A stretch of DNA of 64,000 nucleotides, from contig JAWAKK010000002.1 in the NCBI GenBank assembly GCA_038887515.1, positions 76,989 to 140,988 of the forward strand, written 5' to 3'. The stretch is from Candidatus Nezhaarchaeales archaeon (GTDB taxonomy: Archaea; Thermoproteota; Methanomethylicia; Nezhaarchaeales; WYZ-LMO8). How positions within the stretch are numbered: the stretch's first letter is position 1; the number at the start of each line of letters is the position of its first letter. Made by a program: the position numbers and the translations under genes. The notes under the pieces were generated by a model. It saw nothing but the letters and a program-made list of their open reading frames with translations, had not been told where the DNA came from and made no database searches. Below, piece after piece: positions 3,181 through 63,444 of this stretch.

Positions 3181-4314
3181 CTACAACACCCTGAAGGTTA
3201 TTGAAGAGAAACATAATCCGCACATTATTGGTAACAGGATGAAGAGTACTCTCCTTGAACGAGAGAGTGGCGATACGTCATCTAAGGGGCCTGGGTGCCC
3301 CCTAAAAAGTATTAGTAGGGCAACGAAAGCCATGAATATAAAGCCAGTCATTATCATGATCACTACAGCTATTATAGACACGAATATGTGCTTCCTACTG
3401 TCTAGCAAGGCTCTCGTAACGTGACCTCCATCCAGTTGACCTACTGGTAGGGTATTTAAGAAAGTTATGAGCATGCCAACCCATCCGGCAAAGGCTATTG
3501 GGTGAATTATGAGCGCTTGCTTAAAAGGCGTTTGAAGCAGTGATACGATTTCAGTCCTTATAATAGCGAATAATAGGGGCTCTAGCGGTAAAACTGAGAC
3601 CTGTCCTTGTTCAATCCATGAAAGGACGAGGTCTTCGGGGACGAAGTACGATAAGGAGAGACCTACGAATGTCACTATTATGGACGCTATGAAGCTTAAG
3701 AGCGGACCTGTCAGCCCAAGGTCGAAGAGCTGATCCCTATTAAGAATTGGGGTTTCTTGAATCATAACAGCTCCGAGGGATCCGCCTATCTCCGGTGGCC
3801 CTGGGATAAAGTAGGGGGGTGTAGATTTCAAGTTGTGCTTTGTGCACGCAATTTTATGGCCTAGCTCGTGGACCCCCAACACGAAGAAGATTGAGGCGAC
3901 GTAGGCAATTAAGTGAAGTATCCTATACTTGCCAAATGAAGGATCAATAGTTTCGTATATACCTCCCATCGTGAATAAATAACCTGCGAATGTGACGCTC
4001 GCCATCGTAGCTAGTAGTAGGACGATGTTCCATAAAGGTCTATGTCTAGGACGCTCCTGCCTCTTAAATACTCTTAAAACCTTCTTACCATACTCATTCC
4101 TTAAAACAGGTACGTAACCCTTGGTGTCGAGAATAGAATAGAGCTTTAAGAAGCGGCTTTTTGTATCCTCGTCTTTAACGACGTAGGTTAAGATGCCGAA
4201 TTGTATTTTCCATTCAACAATAGTAAAGTGTTGCCTAACAATTTCATCTATCTCTGTTGGGAAAGGTTCCATTAGATAACACCTAAGTTCAGGCTCTCTA
4301 AACAGGGCCTTCAC
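3181..4314 (-). CDS. Site-2 protease (M50) intramembrane metalloprotease
   Basis: HELGH zinc motif, NTLPVGQLDGGH, multiple TM segments. Confidence 0.92.
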   Translation of the reverse strand: MKALFREPELRCYLMEPFPTEIDEIVRQHFTIVEWKIQFGILTYVVKDEDTKSRFLKLYSILDTKGYVPVLRNEYGKKVLRVFKRQERPRHRPLWNIVLLLATMASVTFAGYLFTMGGIYETIDPSFGKYRILHLIAYVASIFFVLGVHELGHKIACTKHNLKSTPPYFIPGPPEIGGSLGAVMIQETPILNRDQLFDLGLTGPLLSFIASIIVTFVGLSLSYFVPEDLVLSWIEQGQVSVLPLEPLLFAIIRTEIVSLLQTPFKQALIIHPIAFAGWVGMLITFLNTLPVGQLDGGHVTRALLDSRKHIFVSIIAVVIMIMTGFIFMAFVALLILFRGHPGPLDDVSPLSRSRRVLFILLPIMCGLCFSSITFRVL

Positions 4315-54780: not shown

Positions 54781-55173
54781 TTATTTTAAGGGTACGTACA
54801 TTGAACTTCTCGTGGCCCTTAGACCGGGCTCACCGTGCTCCACTTTTTTGCACGTTATAGCGAATTCTCCTAAGTAATGCCCTATCATCTCTTCAGTTAT
54901 AGTTACGGGGATGAACTCTTTGCCGTTGTAGACGTGGACCGTTACTCCGACCATCTCCGGTAATATTATCATGTCTCTGATGTGAGTCCTAACAATCGAT
55001 TTTTTGCCTGTCTTGAGCTCTCTAATTTTTTCGAGGAGCTTCTTCTTCTCGTCATTAAACCCCCTTGCGAGGGACCTCCTCTGCCTCGCTGGAAGCAACT
55101 TTATGAACTCGTCCATAGGCATCTCCAGCAATTGCTCTAAAGTGTAACCCCGATACGTAAACTTACTCGACAT
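54781..55173 (-). CDS. rps19: 30S ribosomal protein S19 (inverted within the S10-type operon)
   Basis: [46 protein letters not shown]. Confidence 0.98.
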
Positions 55174-57799: not shown

Positions 57800-59614
57800 T
57801 TATTGTTCCTCTTTTTCCTCTACTTCCTCCTTTTCCGGGATGTAATAGTATTCTCCTATGCTCTTCTGCTTCCTATGAAGATAGGAATCAGGCTTATTTA
57901 TTCTAACCCTTCCGCTATGTAAATCTCTTCTAAAGGTGACGTCGATCTCCTGCAGGAAGAGGTTAAAGCCACTCCTCAAATCCATGGGGCTTGACGCAAT
58001 GCCGTAAACTCCCGGTTTACCGCTGAAAACCATTATCGAATCAGCAACGGCATCCATAACTACAAGATCGTGCTCAACGACGAAAGCTGCTGCCTTCCTT
58101 TCCTCTACGATCCTTCGAATGAGCTTTGCCATGATGAGGCGTTGCTCTACATCTAAGTAGGCGGAAGGTTCGTCAAGTAAATATATGTTAGCCTCCTTGG
58201 CTAAGGTACACGCTATGCTGACTCGTTGAAGTTCGCCACCGCTTAAAGAGGAAAGCCTACGATCAAAAAGTTGTTCAAGCATAAATGGTTGGCATATCTC
58301 GCTCTTAAACCAAGGCGTGAACATTATGTCCCCCAAGTTCCTGTGCATATATTCGTAGACCATCTCCTCGCTCTCAAGAGTTATGTATTGTGGTTTATAA
58401 CTGAACTTTATGTTAATATTCTGTTGGTTCGACAATAGATCCACCAGGGCCTTTACAAAGGTCGTCTTACCGATTCCGTTAGGACCTAATATGCCAATGA
58501 CTTCCCCTTCATGTATAACTCCTTGGTTTGCGCTTAGCTCGAAGCTCTCCCCTACCTTGACCTTGAATGAGGGCCACGAAAACAAATCGGTGACGGCGTA
58601 GGATTCTCTTGGTCTAGGTCTCAACTTAAACCTCACGGGCTCGCTCCTGAACTTTATGTTCTCGCTAGGTATGTAACCGTCGAGATATACGTTTATGCCC
58701 ACTCGAACACCGTATGGTTGCGATGTAATTCCATAAGCTCCTGGCTTGCCGTACATTATGCAGACCCTGTCTGAAACGTAGTCCAGAATTGCAAGGTCGT
58801 GTTCAGCTATTATGACCGCTTTACCTTCTTGAGACAGGGATCTTATGACTCTAGATGCTTTGAGCCTCTGCATAACGTCTAGGTAACTAGCCGGTTCGTC
58901 GAATATGTAAACATCAGCATCGCGGCAACACGCAGCAACTATAGCTAGTCTCTGAAGCTCCCCACCGCTTAGTGCTGCTACTTCCCTATCAGCTACATCA
59001 ATTAGGTCGAGGTCTGTAGCTAAGTCCTTCCACATCCCCCTTTCATCAACTTTATTTAGTAACTCTTTAATGGTACCTTTGACGTATTTGGGTATTAAGT
59101 CCACGTACTGTACTTTGTGTACAACGCGAAGCTTCCCATGATACAAGTCCCGAAAATAGGGTTGCAGTTCTGTTCCAGCAAAAAAGCGTATCACATCGTC
59201 CTTTGTTGGTTGATGTTCTATAGCACCGAGGTTCGGTGTAAGTTCCCCTGACAAAATGCGAAGTATTGTAGTTTTTCCCGTCCCGTTGGGTCCTATCAAA
59301 CCTATAACTTGACGTCTTCTAGGGGAAGGAAGTCTATAAAGCCTAAACCCATTAACGCCATACTGATGAACGCATTCGCTTTCCAGTTCTTCGGGTAAAT
59401 TAACTATTGTTATGGCCGAGAAAGGGCACTTTTTAACGCAAATACCGCAGCCAACACATAGGTTCTCTCTTATTACTGGTCTATAGATGTCTTCGTCAAA
59501 CTCGATGGCCATAACTTTATTCTTCACCAATGGACAGAAACGATAGCATTCTCTACTACACTCTTTTGGCTTGCATAGATCTTTATCTATTACAGCTATT
59601 CGGGGCATAATCAT
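57800..59614 (-). CDS. rli: Ribosome-recycling ATPase ABCE1/Rli1
   Basis: N-terminal Fe-S domain (CKPKEC...CYRFCP, CVGCGICVKKCP), two ABC domains with LSGGELQR; start 59614 or 59608 after an AGGAG SD. Confidence 0.97.
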   Translation of the reverse strand: MIMPRIAVIDKDLCKPKECSRECYRFCPLVKNKVMAIEFDEDIYRPVIRENLCVGCGICVKKCPFSAITIVNLPEELESECVHQYGVNGFRLYRLPSPRRRQVIGLIGPNGTGKTTILRILSGELTPNLGAIEHQPTKDDVIRFFAGTELQPYFRDLYHGKLRVVHKVQYVDLIPKYVKGTIKELLNKVDERGMWKDLATDLDLIDVADREVAALSGGELQRLAIVAACCRDADVYIFDEPASYLDVMQRLKASRVIRSLSQEGKAVIIAEHDLAILDYVSDRVCIMYGKPGAYGITSQPYGVRVGINVYLDGYIPSENIKFRSEPVRFKLRPRPRESYAVTDLFSWPSFKVKVGESFELSANQGVIHEGEVIGILGPNGIGKTTFVKALVDLLSNQQNINIKFSYKPQYITLESEEMVYEYMHRNLGDIMFTPWFKSEICQPFMLEQLFDRRLSSLSGGELQRVSIACTLAKEANIYLLDEPSAYLDVEQRLIMAKLIRRIVEERKAAAFVVEHDLVVMDAVADSIMVFSGKPGVYGIASSPMDLRSGFNLFLQEIDVTFRRDLHSGRVRINKPDSYLHRKQKSIGEYYYIPEKEEVEEKEEQ

Positions 59615-59947
59615 ATCTCCTGCCTGACGATATATCGAACGCTGATAACTATGCATGTCGAGCCTATACTTCGATCCTAACTACTTCACCTTTTGCTCGT
59701 CCTTATTTCATTATCGGTCGCATTTTCTCAATAAACTTAGTCCTATAGTGACTTAACGGCCGGGTTATAAAGACCTTCATTCTTCCATGAATGTCCAACT
59801 GTTGTCTAATATAGTATTATCTAATAGCAGCTGTGTGGATAATGTAAATTCGCGAAGATTATGAAGATTGCCAAGAAAACAGAAATATGTTTTGTTAAAA
59901 ATTTTAGGTTAAAAATAGTTGTGTTGTATTGAGTTGAATTAATACGT

Positions 59948-60022
59948 CTACCACTCCTCTTCCCATTCCTCTTCCTCTTCCCATTCCTCTTCCTCTTCCC
60001 ATTCTTCCCATTCTTCTTCCAT
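59948..60022 (-). CDS. Putative 24-aa Glu/Trp-only microprotein MEEEWEEWEEEEEWEEEEEWEEEW
   Basis: ATG 60022 to TAG 59948 using only GAA, GAG and TGG codons; GGGGG SD-like run 7 nt upstream; TTTAAATA box at 60072-65; T-rich tracts downstream. Confidence 0.72.
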   Translation of the reverse strand: MEEEWEEWEEEEEWEEEEEWEEEW

Positions 60023-60064
60023 CTTTCTGCCCCCTGAAACGGTGTCTTAGAAGATTTATGGCTT

Positions 60065-60072
60065 TATTTAAA
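60065..60072 (-). promoter_or_regulatory. TATA box for the Glu/Trp microprotein gene
   Basis: TTTAAATA on the minus strand about 45 bp upstream of ATG 60022; the same octamer precedes leuC and the sRNA at 61617. Confidence 0.6.
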
Positions 60073-60122
60073 GTTACCGATAGGTTTGTGGAGAAGCTTT
60101 TAAGAAAAGCCCTCCTTTAAAC

Positions 60123-60668
60123 ATGCATGCTAAAAGGTGTTTAGCGTTGAAATTTAACTTACTGGTCTCCACGTACAGGAGCAGAGAAGATGAGTGTATA
60201 AGCGAGCTATGGTATTTATTCCGAGAGCTAGGCGACGATCAGGTAGAGATACGTAGAGCACCGGTTCCCGGACTACTGTTCGTAAGAACCAATCTTGATC
60301 CTTTTGAGGCATCTAAAAAGATTGGAGAGATAGCCAGAGAGAGACCTTGGGACGTAAGGTATACCTTGAAGCTTACTCCAATCGATGCCGTTACTAGCGA
60401 CGATCTGGATGAAATTAAGAGTGTAGCAGTTGCACTAGCAAATAAGAAGATACGTGAAGATGAAACTTTTAGGATAACGGTGAACAAAAGGCTTTCCAGC
60501 ATTAGTAGTAGGAAGCTTATAGAGGAAGTAGCCAAGGAGATTAATAGGAAAGTTAGCTTAAAGAAACCCGATAAGATTCTACAAATAGAAATAGTCGGGA
60601 AAGACGTAGGAATAGTCGTGTTAAAGCCAGAAGACGTAGTTTCAATAGTTAAGATAACTACCTCTTAA
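60123..60668 (+). CDS. Stand-alone THUMP-domain RNA-binding protein
   Basis: FNLLVST, ETFRITVNKR, VSLKKPDKILQIEIVG; start may be TTG 60147. Confidence 0.88.
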   Translation: MHAKRCLALKFNLLVSTYRSREDECISELWYLFRELGDDQVEIRRAPVPGLLFVRTNLDPFEASKKIGEIARERPWDVRYTLKLTPIDAVTSDDLDEIKSVAVALANKKIREDETFRITVNKRLSSISSRKLIEEVAKEINRKVSLKKPDKILQIEIVGKDVGIVVLKPEDVVSIVKITTS

Positions 60669-61665: not shown

Positions 61666-62883
61666 ATGTTATTGGTGGCTGCAATATCCTATGGTTATGG
61701 TAATAAGGAAAGCCCAGTACTTCTTAAAAGATCCCTACTTAGCATTATAGAGAAGAAGTTAAAGAGAGAGAAACTCAAAGTTGCTAAGAATGATAGCCAT
61801 TCTAAACGTAAACCCATAAGCTGTGGTCTTACGGTACATCCCGGTTCCGGTTGCCCCCTTCAATGTAGTTACTGCTATATTTACGACATGGGATTTAACA
61901 CGTATGCAACGCCATACTCTCTTGAAGGGCTTCAGCTCGTGGCAGCCCTTCTTTATAACAAGTATTTTTATCCTACTAGATGGGGTACTTATCTTGCATT
62001 CGGTAGCGTAACAGAACCCTTCCTTCCAAATATAATGCCTAAAACGTTGGAGTATTTGAAAGCCGTGTCAGAGTATTTAGGCAATCCTTGTCAAGTTTCC
62101 ACTAAGATGGTTATCCACGACGAAGTGATAGAAGAGCTCGTTGGCATAAAGGATTTAAAAATATCATTTTTAATCACGGTAACGAGTCTCAGACAATTCC
62201 TCCATCTAGAGGAGAAAGCTCCTCACCCCTTCAAACGATTGGAGAACTTGAAGAGGTTGAGGAAAAAAGGGTTTAAACCGTTCGTGTTCTTGAGACCCCT
62301 CTTGCCTGGATTAAGCGATGAAGAGCTAAGTGAGATAGTAGACCAAGCACGAGCTTCAGGTGCTTATGGCATTGTTATCGGCAATTTAAGGTTATCACAA
62401 AACATAATTAAAAGGCTTTTAGGCAAAGGTATAAACCTTTCAAAGCTCTTTACAACAGATTTTAGATCTCTAAAAAAGGGATTTATCGATATTAGAGTTA
62501 ATGGTAGGGTTTTATCATGCATTAGAGAAAGAGCTTTAGAGAGGGGACTCATCTTCGTGAAGAGGGCGTGCTGTGCCAATACGCTTTCGCAGTACCTCCA
62601 AGGACACAGTGATGTGGTGTGCCCCTCCTTATGTTTCCTAAACGAAAATGTATGCGAACCAACATGTCCTTCTCAATGTAGAAGAAAGGCTCTAGGAGAA
62701 CCTAATCACATAGATATGTATGAGACCATAGGAGAAGTTCTCGGATCAAATAAGTACGAAGTAGACGTGGAGAATCACGTTATTTCCATAAAGCTTAAGG
62801 AAAGCTTGAGAGATGAAAAGTCAGCATTATTCTCATTGATGTACCTCTTACGGAGGAAAATTAGATTTATAAAATCCACTTAG
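61666..62883 (+). CDS. Radical SAM protein of unknown function with a Cys-rich C-terminal region
   Basis: CPLQCSYC motif, AFGSVTEPF, QVSTK, FLRPLLPG; C-terminal ACC...CPSLC...CEPTCPSQC. Confidence 0.85.
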   Translation: MLLVAAISYGYGNKESPVLLKRSLLSIIEKKLKREKLKVAKNDSHSKRKPISCGLTVHPGSGCPLQCSYCYIYDMGFNTYATPYSLEGLQLVAALLYNKYFYPTRWGTYLAFGSVTEPFLPNIMPKTLEYLKAVSEYLGNPCQVSTKMVIHDEVIEELVGIKDLKISFLITVTSLRQFLHLEEKAPHPFKRLENLKRLRKKGFKPFVFLRPLLPGLSDEELSEIVDQARASGAYGIVIGNLRLSQNIIKRLLGKGINLSKLFTTDFRSLKKGFIDIRVNGRVLSCIRERALERGLIFVKRACCANTLSQYLQGHSDVVCPSLCFLNENVCEPTCPSQCRRKALGEPNHIDMYETIGEVLGSNKYEVDVENHVISIKLKESLRDEKSALFSLMYLLRRKIRFIKST

Positions 62884-63207: not shown

Positions 63208-63444
63208 CTGGCAGAACTACCGTTAGCTCCAATAGATAGGATTATTAGAAGAGCTGGTGCTGAGCGTGTGGGAGACGACGCTGTCAAAGCTCTATGTAAA
63301 ATACTTGAAGATGTCGCACTCGACATTGCGCGGGAAGCCGTGGAACTGGCTCGTCACGCCGGTAGAAAGACCGTCACAGCTGAAGACGTCAATTTAGCTG
63401 TTAAACATGTCCTCCGCTGGCTTAGCGTAAGTATGTATAAATGA
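63208..63444 (+). CDS. Archaeal histone (HMf family), CTG start, C-terminal extension
   Basis: Manual translation: (M)AELPLAPIDRIIRRAGAERVGDDAVKALCKILEDVALDIAREAVELARHAGRKTVTAEDVNLAVKHVLRWLSVSMYK; GAGGTG SD 7 nt before CTG. Confidence 0.95.
   Translation: MAELPLAPIDRIIRRAGAERVGDDAVKALCKILEDVALDIAREAVELARHAGRKTVTAEDVNLAVKHVLRWLSVSMYK

Follow-up and report, generated by a model that had tools for sequence, protein, structure and literature searches.

The 64-kb window analysed here (64,000 nucleotides of contig JAWAKK010000002.1 from a Candidatus Nezhaarchaeales archaeon) contains on its minus strand a micro open reading frame (ORF) of glutamate and tryptophan codons, the E/W ORF, at 59948..60022. 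It starts with ATG at 60022, continues with 23 codons that are all GAA, GAG or TGG, and ends with TAG at 59950-59948. Translation yields a peptide of 24 amino acids, MEEEWEEWEEEEEWEEEEEWEEEW, consisting of Met, 18 Glu and 5 Trp, with an unmodified mass of 3404 Da and a net charge of about -18. Comparison with related archaea indicates that the E/W ORF is a real micro-gene, which codes for protein and has a promoter of its own, and that its amino acid sequence is under very strong purifying selection. To judge by the sequence searches, it is the founding member of a new family of tiny and extremely acidic proteins, which fits none of the families and systems tested. As an explanation of the whole, we favour with modest confidence a real micro-gene whose acidic, Trp-bearing peptide is released and acts in trans.

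Codon-level conservation in Nezhaarchaeales

The low-complexity tract extends from codon 2 to the last sense codon of the E/W ORF. It is the only run of at least six Glu, Asp or Trp residues in the six reading frames of the window. Tandem Repeats Finder detected 2.8 perfect copies of an 18-nt unit, which corresponds to the six-codon block EEEEEW. This unit makes the DNA of the tract repeat-like, and a microsatellite was therefore a fair alternative to test. According to the cross-species data, the tract, though repeat-like, is under codon-level constraint.

Relatives were collected by a protein search with ABCE1 and subsequent contig look-ups; a scan of genome contigs with the ABCE1 protein gave one close relative only. 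ABCE1 homologues with 73-83% identity were named Candidatus Nezhaarchaeota or Nezhaarchaeales. The next tier, with at most 58% identity, comprised Methanomethylicia and Bathyarchaeia. The loci represent eight further close lineages (L001, L020-L029 with duplicates, and L122) and a deep Nezhaarchaeota lineage (L030, ABCE1 identity 56%). They share a gene order of radical SAM, Urm1-like, Cgi121 and THUMP genes (the latter on the minus strand), a gap, ABCE1 on the plus strand, FBP aldolase/phosphatase and ribosomal proteins. All 13 loci fetched from Nezhaarchaeales, an order of hot-spring archaea, carry an E/W ORF in the gap between THUMP and ABCE1, on the strand of ABCE1 and in nine distinct nucleotide versions. 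The slot has a divergent THUMP gene on one side and, on the other, the E/W ORF, in some lineages a zinc ribbon (Zn-ribbon) gene, and ABCE1. The deeper L030 also has an ORF there.

The nine close versions encode MEEEWEEWEEEEEWEEEE(E)WEEEW, with one Glu codon as the sole difference. Over the same loci, the peptide is 100% identical apart from this Glu, and identities are 73-83% for ABCE1, 66-81% for THUMP and 39-56% for Cgi121. The peptide is thus the most conserved coding element of the neighbourhood. In the DNA of the nine versions, both GAA and GAG occur at 16 of the 18 Glu codons, and all 16 variable columns are third codon positions. Summed pairwise differences amount to 280 at position 3 and 0 at positions 1 and 2. 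By chance, 16 variable columns would all fall on third positions with a probability of 1.3e-10; if variation is restricted to purine sites, the value is 3e-13. Two length changes, in the window and in L026, are each exactly one codon long. These two versions belong to different sub-clades; the one-codon change therefore arose twice, both times in frame. Slippage is indicated by blocks 3 and 4 of the window tract, which are identical in nucleotide sequence. Invariant in the alignment are the promoter cores CTTTAAATAAA and CCAT, a GGGG run, the ATG and all first and second codon positions. Similarity among the relatives collapses directly past the stop codon. The first-pass annotation had described a self-standing gene on the basis of the window. 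This view is strongly supported by the conserved promoter box and ribosome-binding motif and by differences that are limited to synonymous GAA/GAG changes and whole-codon indels. In a check of the DNA between THUMP and ABCE1, every close relative was found to keep a frame-preserving E/W ORF.

Other readings of the tract dispense with the E/W peptide: a non-coding purine/pyrimidine repeat, a neutral microsatellite, or coding in another frame (sense +2 or antisense). We regard them as very improbable. The repeat unit scored by Tandem Repeats Finder would suit the first two; a purine-only or neutral element would, however, vary at all three codon positions, and the observed ratio is 16:0:0. The indels are whole codons. 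These length changes, and first and second positions that stay fixed where the flanks cannot be aligned, speak against a neutral microsatellite. Rfam covariance models gave no match at E<=1 on either strand of 59400-60300.

The antisense frame (HHSSSHSSSS..., 59951-60019) is as invariant as the E/W frame. This is due to codon geometry (GAR backwards is YTC; TCY and CAY codons), and the codon-position statistic alone therefore cannot choose the strand. Codon-position tests on purine-rich ORFs are generally open to this pitfall, which was missed in the first-pass annotation. In six of ten loci, the antisense frame has no ATG, GTG or TTG upstream of the tract, and its flanks are not conserved. 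The sense +2 frame offers an ATG-initiated ORF of 35 amino acids rich in Arg and Gly (MGRMGRGRG...), which overlaps the tract in the window. It undergoes replacements between R and G and has a different tail and stop in every lineage. The boundaries of conservation match the start and stop codons of the E/W frame. In all 20 family members, the start lies directly before the acidic tract and the stop directly after the last Trp.

As judged from their distribution, the TATA box and the Shine-Dalgarno (SD)-like motif of the E/W ORF behave like real expression signals of this genome. The TATA box TTTAAATA (60065-60072, minus strand) is located 50 nt 5' of the ATG. It is part of an archaeal promoter block, ACTTTAAATAAAGCCAT (60058..60074, minus strand), whose cores are invariant in nine of nine Nezhaarchaeales sequences amid a variable spacer. 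TTTAAATA occurs six times in the window, which is 92% coding, and five of the six occurrences are intergenic and promoter-like. The SD-like run GGGGG (60030..60034, minus strand) lies 7 nt before the ATG; GGGG is kept in all nine Nezhaarchaeales relatives at 7-10 nt from the ATG, and divergent lineages have GAGGTG, GGTGA or GGAGGTGA in its place. SD-like motifs precede 35 of the 62 long genes of the window; their background frequency is about 6% per 15-mer, and that of GGGGG alone is 0.6%. All complete family members have an ATG or GTG start, an SD motif at 5-10 nt and Trp before the stop (W-stop), and a TATA-like box is present about 45-50 nt 5' of the ORF in every lineage examined. Applying the usual archaeal distance between TATA box and transcription start, transcription is predicted to start at about 60040-60045, with a 5' leader of about 20 nt.

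Past the stop codon, two T5 tracts (59911-59915 and 59897-59901, together spanning 59897..59915 on the minus strand, 33-51 nt past the stop) are weak candidates for archaeal oligo-T terminators in an A/T-rich region. Most relatives have a T4-T5 tract (consensus ATTATTTTT) 6-33 nt past the stop. On the other side, between the micro-ORF promoter and the THUMP gene, the block CTTAAAAGCTTC (60093..60104) is present in seven to eight of the nine sequences of the Nezhaarchaeales alignment. By its position, it is probably the divergent THUMP promoter (GAAGCTTTTAAG on the plus strand).

A family of tiny acidic proteins

The family occurs, according to the sequences collected, in several Thermoproteota lineages: Nezhaarchaeales, deeper Nezhaarchaeota, a Thermoprotei metagenome-assembled genome (MAG) and Bathyarchaeia. 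A hot-spring contig is a further source. The deep Nezhaarchaeota locus L030 encodes MFEEEWEEWEEEWEEEEWEEEW, to be read as (GTG)FEEEWEEWEEEWEEEEWEEEW or, from an upstream GTG, as MASVF...; it has its own TATA-like box and GAGGTG. In the Thermoprotei MAG (L152; identities of 55% for ABCE1 and 36% for THUMP), MVLYEEEWEEEWEEEEWEEEEWEEEEWEEEEW occupies the slot between THUMP and ABCE1. The hot-spring contig L095 has MSFEEEEWDEFEEEEWDEWEEE?WEEEEW beside Elf1 and Tsr3 genes. The Bathyarchaeia loci L121, L142, L154, L155 and the partial L132, assigned to this lineage through a neighbour gene, encode MVFEEEDWEDWDEEEEEEEDW and variants thereof (MVFEEEDWEDW...EEDW). Among the Bathyarchaeia members, six of seven variable columns are at position 3; the other one changes D to N, and replacements involve D, E and N only.

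Family members have 20-32 residues with 14-22 acidic residues, an acidic content of 67-75%. The N-terminal pattern is [D/E]3-4-W-[D/E]2-3-W/F, with an aromatic residue at position 2-5 and further aromatics every 3-6 residues. All 20 members end with Trp, and the aromatic positions are conserved within each lineage. The gene neighbourhood is less constant. The divergent THUMP arrangement is present in all Nezhaarchaeota loci and in L152; neither ABCE1 nor THUMP is located near the Bathyarchaeia members, and L095 also lacks both. Homology of the E/W-type peptides across these lineages is plausible from their sequences.

The sampling was broad but uneven. A metagenome scan with a loose DNA pattern gave at least 121 matches, and the distribution of the family is under-sampled by it; five of the 121 matches listed are family members, and those listed include L122, an identical Nezhaarchaeota copy, as well as L095 and Bathyarchaeia members. 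As a control, the general family pattern was run as a regular expression over 1.8 Mb from 233 loci and returned genuine family members only. The Methanomethylicia (L151) and Baldrarchaeia (L153) loci have no E/W ORF within 10 kb of ABCE1. A scan of viral contigs gave 77 matches, none of them family-like, and thus lends no support to a viral or anti-defence origin.

Known families did not account for the peptide. Five family peptides had no match in Pfam and NCBIfam at E<=10, and the window peptide had none in PDB at the same threshold. An exhaustive phmmer search against 1.84 billion protein representatives, with the 32-residue window translation as query (the peptide plus 8 upstream residues), gave no match at E<=0.001, a weak negative in view of the short and biased query. 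The exact family peptides were not found in a collection of 15 billion proteins, and a full-text literature search for the sequence strings returned nothing relevant. The suggestion that this is not a described family was thus borne out by the searches of Pfam, NCBIfam and PDB, of the protein collections and of the literature. A stand-alone peptide of two letters, an acidic residue and Trp, has no counterpart in the family libraries or the literature searched.

The most conserved coding element of its neighbourhood is therefore missing from the family databases and literature searched, and gene callers missed it nearly everywhere. Gene calls for the E/W ORF exist in two loci only, L026 (29 amino acids, from an upstream start) and L152 (32 amino acids). 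Strong selection can thus act on genes as short and as low in complexity as this one, and standard pipelines discard such ORFs twice, by the length cut-off and by low-complexity masking.

Gene neighbourhood and possible mode of action

The next gene downstream on the same strand is ABCE1/Rli1 (57800..59608, minus strand), identified by the Pfam domains Fer4_RLI and two ABC_tran. The longest ABCE1 ORF begins at 59656 (MHSYQRSIYRQAGDMIMPRIAV). The true start is most likely 59608 (MPRIAV), since the relatives begin with MPRIAV and an AGGAG is located 8 nt before this ATG. The resulting spacer between micro-ORF and ABCE1 has 339 nt (59609..59947, minus strand) and is not conserved; it cannot be aligned with L001. 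Its sole conserved element is an A/T-rich block, CGATAATGAAATAAG (59702-59716, minus strand), which is common to L020 and L022 and loosely to L001. Located about 90 nt 5' of ABCE1, this block may be a candidate ABCE1 promoter with a long leader.

In five Nezhaarchaeota lineages, the E/W ORF is followed after 35-45 nt by a gene with its own SD motif; the distance in L152 is about 160 nt. In all six, this gene codes for a Zn-ribbon protein of about 87-103 amino acids, and ABCE1 comes next. The protein has an N-terminal zinc ribbon of the TFS/Rpb9 type and a long charged helix. It is not a complete TFS, because the catalytic C-terminal TFS ribbon is absent. Genes of this kind (about 87-109 amino acids) are located directly 5' of ABCE1 in several Thermoproteota including Methanomethylicia: L122 1290-1583 (minus strand), L024 2157-2450, L026 2127-2438, L027 2065-2358, L029 2159-2455, L152 9665-9928 and L151 9615-9944. 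Methanomethylicia keep the pair of Zn-ribbon gene and ABCE1 without an E/W ORF. In the sub-clade of the window, the Zn-ribbon gene is absent from this place, and the spacer to ABCE1 measures 220-340 nt, unconserved apart from the A/T-rich block. The 339-nt spacer of the window was considered as a decayed Zn-ribbon copy; this was rejected, as no remnant was found.

The Bathyarchaeia differ. In the four complete loci, the E/W-type ORF is followed at a distance of 40-50 nt by another mini-ORF, which has 12-18 codons and an SD motif of its own. These mini-ORFs are Lys-rich (MPKKGKK...) and read MPKKRKKGKKKSKQS, (GTG)SGKGKKKNNQS, MPKKGKKDNKKPKKA and MPKKGKKRPKHKTGVNHH; the approximate positions are L121 4296-4343, L142 4369-4407, L154 ~3935-3982 and L155 ~3930-3986. 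They are followed by a T-rich terminator and then by convergent or unrelated genes. From their sequences, the acidic ORF and the Lys-rich mini-ORF may form an acidic/basic pair of micro-peptides. A Lys-rich mini-ORF after the E/W ORF was also sought in Nezhaarchaeota; none was found.

The arrangement in Nezhaarchaeota raises the question of a cis-acting leader or conserved-peptide upstream ORF (uORF), in which the nascent chain matters and not the released peptide. Ribosome progress or stalling at the W-stop would set oligo-T read-through or the translation of the Zn-ribbon gene and ABCE1. No stronger trigger of intrinsic ribosome destabilisation (IRD) is known than an N-terminal poly-Glu chain, and such a leader would make expression of the ribosome-splitting factor depend on the stability of ribosomes, on Mg2+ or on the supply of tRNA-Trp/Glu. 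The position on the same strand 5' of Zn-ribbon/ABCE1 in the Nezhaarchaeota loci and L152, the next gene with its own SD motif shortly past the stop in five lineages, and the T4-T5 tract close to the stop agree with this. In bacteria and eukaryotes, N-terminal runs of Asp and Glu destabilise translating ribosomes and cause translation to abort, an effect that serves MgtL as a sensor (PMC9718836; 10.1101/2021.02.02.429294). An acidic run within the first ten or so residues, as in MgtL (PMC9718836; 10.1101/2021.02.02.429294), is present in the window peptide, with Glu at 8 of the 10 positions that follow Met. Like the E/W peptide, regulatory uORF peptides show conservation of their amino acid sequence (PMC5587730, PMC9305500).

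A leader is a possible but doubtful explanation. No common class of downstream gene exists across the family; the downstream gene in Bathyarchaeia is only the Lys-rich mini-ORF before the terminator, and ABCE1 and THUMP are missing there and in L095. Leader-peptide attenuation is not known from archaea, which counts against a leader. Nor is IRD known from archaea. The pair of Zn-ribbon gene and ABCE1 exists without the ORF in Methanomethylicia. The long, unconserved spacer in the sub-clade of the window contains a T-tract and a candidate internal promoter, seemingly a separate promoter of ABCE1. Both the Bathyarchaeia context and this spacer support a peptide that acts in trans. A stall motif would not usually require that all five Trp positions be strictly conserved along the entire peptide. 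Pyrococcus furiosus, the one archaeal proteome examined in this respect, shows no avoidance of N-terminal Asp and Glu (PMC9718836).

A special form of the leader would be a sensor of ribosome integrity, in which poly-Glu destabilises the ribosome and the Trp residues tune the strength. The fraction of ribosomes that reach the W-stop would then set read-through into, or translation of, Zn-ribbon/ABCE1. We consider this unlikely. If true, it would be the first leader-peptide (attenuation-like) control in archaea and an autoregulatory loop for the ribosome-recycling ATPase. Any cis-acting role would mean nascent-chain sensing and leader-peptide control in archaea, specifically for ABCE1.

Given that the gene is real, we think it reasonably probable, by analogy with known acidic ligands, that the product of the E/W ORF is a small, disordered polyanion which, once released, acts in trans. 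A trans-acting peptide is favoured because the family form is kept in contexts without a common downstream gene, because all aromatic positions and the free C-terminal Trp are conserved, and because the composition matches that of acidic disordered proteins with acid-flanked conserved aromatics. The carboxylates would cover a basic nucleic-acid-binding surface in the manner of a phosphate backbone. The spaced Trp side chains and the free C-terminal Trp would anchor in hydrophobic or base-stacking pockets. The peptide could thereby compete with RNA, DNA or an acidic protein tail, or chaperone a basic partner.

Acidic chains are a challenge for the ribosome itself. Bulky residues antagonise the destabilisation of ribosomes by acidic nascent chains (bioRxiv 10.1101/2021.02.02.429294). 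The Trp residues, and Phe or Tyr at positions 2-4 in other lineages, probably make the N-terminal poly-Glu translatable by countering this effect. Without bulky residues, the E/W peptide might not be translatable at all, whether it acts in trans or as a leader.

A weak pointer to the target of a trans-acting peptide is given by the context in the clade of the window and by similar tracts in uL15, Obg and FtsY, which suggest the ribosome, the translation machinery or the RNA-modification machinery. Trp-punctuated acidic tracts in FtsY, Obg and uL15 made up about 40 of the 121 metagenome matches listed. They are located in the C-terminal tail of archaeal uL15 (...DDDDEDWEEWEEE before the stop; L037, L057, L088, L137 and L143), in the C-terminal tail of bacterial Obg (L044, L050 and others) and in the N-terminal acidic domain of FtsY (L038 and about 22 others). 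The first-pass annotation had named ABCE1, the THUMP protein and the histone as candidate partners. The adjacency of ABCE1 and THUMP holds in Nezhaarchaeota and in one Thermoprotei MAG, and fails in Bathyarchaeia and in L095; gene linkage is therefore a weak argument for the proposed partners. A role as counter-ion of eL41, a polybasic ribosomal protein of 25 amino acids, was considered as a speculative possibility.

Several points weigh against a released, trans-acting peptide of one family. The support for the micro-gene is comparative throughout. The Nezhaarchaeota and Bathyarchaeia peptides are short and of low complexity and could be convergent. The gene neighbourhood is not kept across lineages and points to no partner. 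The pointer to the ribosome may arise because FtsY, Obg and uL15 genes are abundant in metagenomes. Amino acid conservation and an invariant residue before the stop are equally typical of nascent peptides that act in cis. Most Nezhaarchaeota and L152 have the ORF in first place before Zn-ribbon and ABCE1, and it may be a leader there.

If the peptide does act in trans, it would offer a handle on a basic partner in translation, RNA modification or chromatin of Nezhaarchaeota and Bathyarchaeia. It can be synthesised chemically, and its five Trp residues provide an intrinsic fluorescence for binding assays.

The other neighbours are in line with the first-pass annotation, which had placed ABCE1 downstream on the same strand, a THUMP gene in divergent orientation and a histone gene nearby. 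The stand-alone THUMP-domain gene (Pfam THUMP) is located at 60123..60668 on the plus strand. Its ATG at 60123 adds an N-terminal extension that is absent from the relatives; a TTG at 60146 with AAGGTG upstream fits the THUMP start of the relatives (..KFNLLVSTYR) better. Beyond THUMP follow Cgi121, an Urm1/SAMP-like gene and a radical SAM gene (61666-62883). The histone-fold gene is found at 63208-63441. On the other side of ABCE1, a gene at 54781-55173 (minus strand), which from its translation we take to resemble ribosomal protein S19, lies inside a plus-strand run of L3, L4, L23, L2, [S19-like], L22, S3 and L29. Its minus-strand orientation is an inversion compared with the usual order of the ribosomal protein operon.

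The radical SAM gene codes for 405 amino acids with a Cys-rich C-terminus, is located 1.6 kb from the micro-ORF and is syntenic in the Nezhaarchaeota loci. It suggests a further reading, a precursor of a modified peptide or cofactor, that is, a ribosomally synthesised and post-translationally modified peptide (RiPP) like PqqA (23-24 amino acids), with Trp and Glu cross-linked by the nearby enzyme. The size and the missing annotation of the E/W ORF resemble PqqA-type precursors. We nevertheless regard this reading as highly unlikely. The radical SAM gene also stands beside Urm1 and THUMP in the Methanomethylicia locus without the ORF, and it is not in the immediate neighbourhood of the ORFs in L152 or Bathyarchaeia. 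Its best matches, which are weak, are of the PA0069/Rv2578c type and not RiPP maturases. The peptide has no division into leader and core.

Comparison with known systems

PqqA-type precursors are encoded by genes for about 23 amino acids that are usually missed by annotation, and Glu and an aromatic residue form the reactive pair. The E/W ORF differs by the lack of a conserved maturase neighbour and of a leader/core architecture. MgtL-type leaders and uORFs share with the E/W ORF the short length, the acidic N-terminus, conservation at the amino acid level, an invariant residue before the stop and, in the clade of the window, the 5' position. In contrast to them, the E/W family has no conserved regulated downstream gene, and the entire peptide is conserved instead of a short motif.

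The tracts of FtsY, Obg and uL15 share the pattern [D/E]2-4-W-[D/E]2-W-[D/E]n with the E/W peptide, and all three are ribosome-associated proteins. They are segments of large proteins, and the likeness is compositional only. The stalk tails of archaea and eukaryotes (aP1, P1/P2) dock on translation GTPases and on NBD1 of ABCE1 (PMC6125642). Like the E/W peptide, they are flexible acidic segments with a hydrophobic or aromatic end, and the ABCE1 gene adjoins the micro-ORF. They differ in being part of a ribosomal protein and in carrying an L/GXXLF motif, and the linkage to ABCE1 is lost in Bathyarchaeia. Membership in the stalk tails was rejected since the L/GXXLF motif (PMC6125642) is absent: the window peptide ends with EEEW and contains no Leu, Gly or Phe.

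The acidic C-terminal tails of SSB and T7 gp2.5 compete with single-stranded DNA for the OB fold and recruit partner enzymes (PMC3936761). An acidic run with an aromatic or hydrophobic C-terminal residue (...DDDIPF in Escherichia coli SSB) is common to these tails and the E/W peptide. The tails are tethered to an OB-fold protein and have a single terminal aromatic residue; the E/W peptide is free-standing and has five to seven Trp.

DSS1 and CSNAP have conserved aromatics flanked by acidic residues, and DSS1 was reported to displace RPA as a DNA mimic (PMC8442969, PMC7641332). DSS1/Sem1 and CSNAP resemble the E/W peptide in being very small and highly acidic with acid-flanked aromatics (Trp in DSS1, Phe in CSNAP). 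The aromatic positions are their conserved feature, and they bind basic or hydrophobic surfaces of several partners. They are eukaryotic proteins of 57-70 amino acids with linkers, a C-terminal helix and an ordinary composition outside the motifs, whereas the E/W peptide consists of the motif alone in 20-32 amino acids and ends with Trp; no sequence relationship is detectable. The trait of DNA mimics and acidic-aromatic ligands, a high negative charge density with conserved positions of aromatic anchors, is present in the E/W family. The earlier idea of a nucleic-acid-like polyanion or a motif like that of histone chaperones is consistent with this group of ligands (DSS1, SSB tails, stalk tails). 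If the peptide acts in trans, it would be a minimal natural polyanion with anchors, an archaeal counterpart of DSS1-like proteins or of the tails of SSB and the ribosomal stalk.

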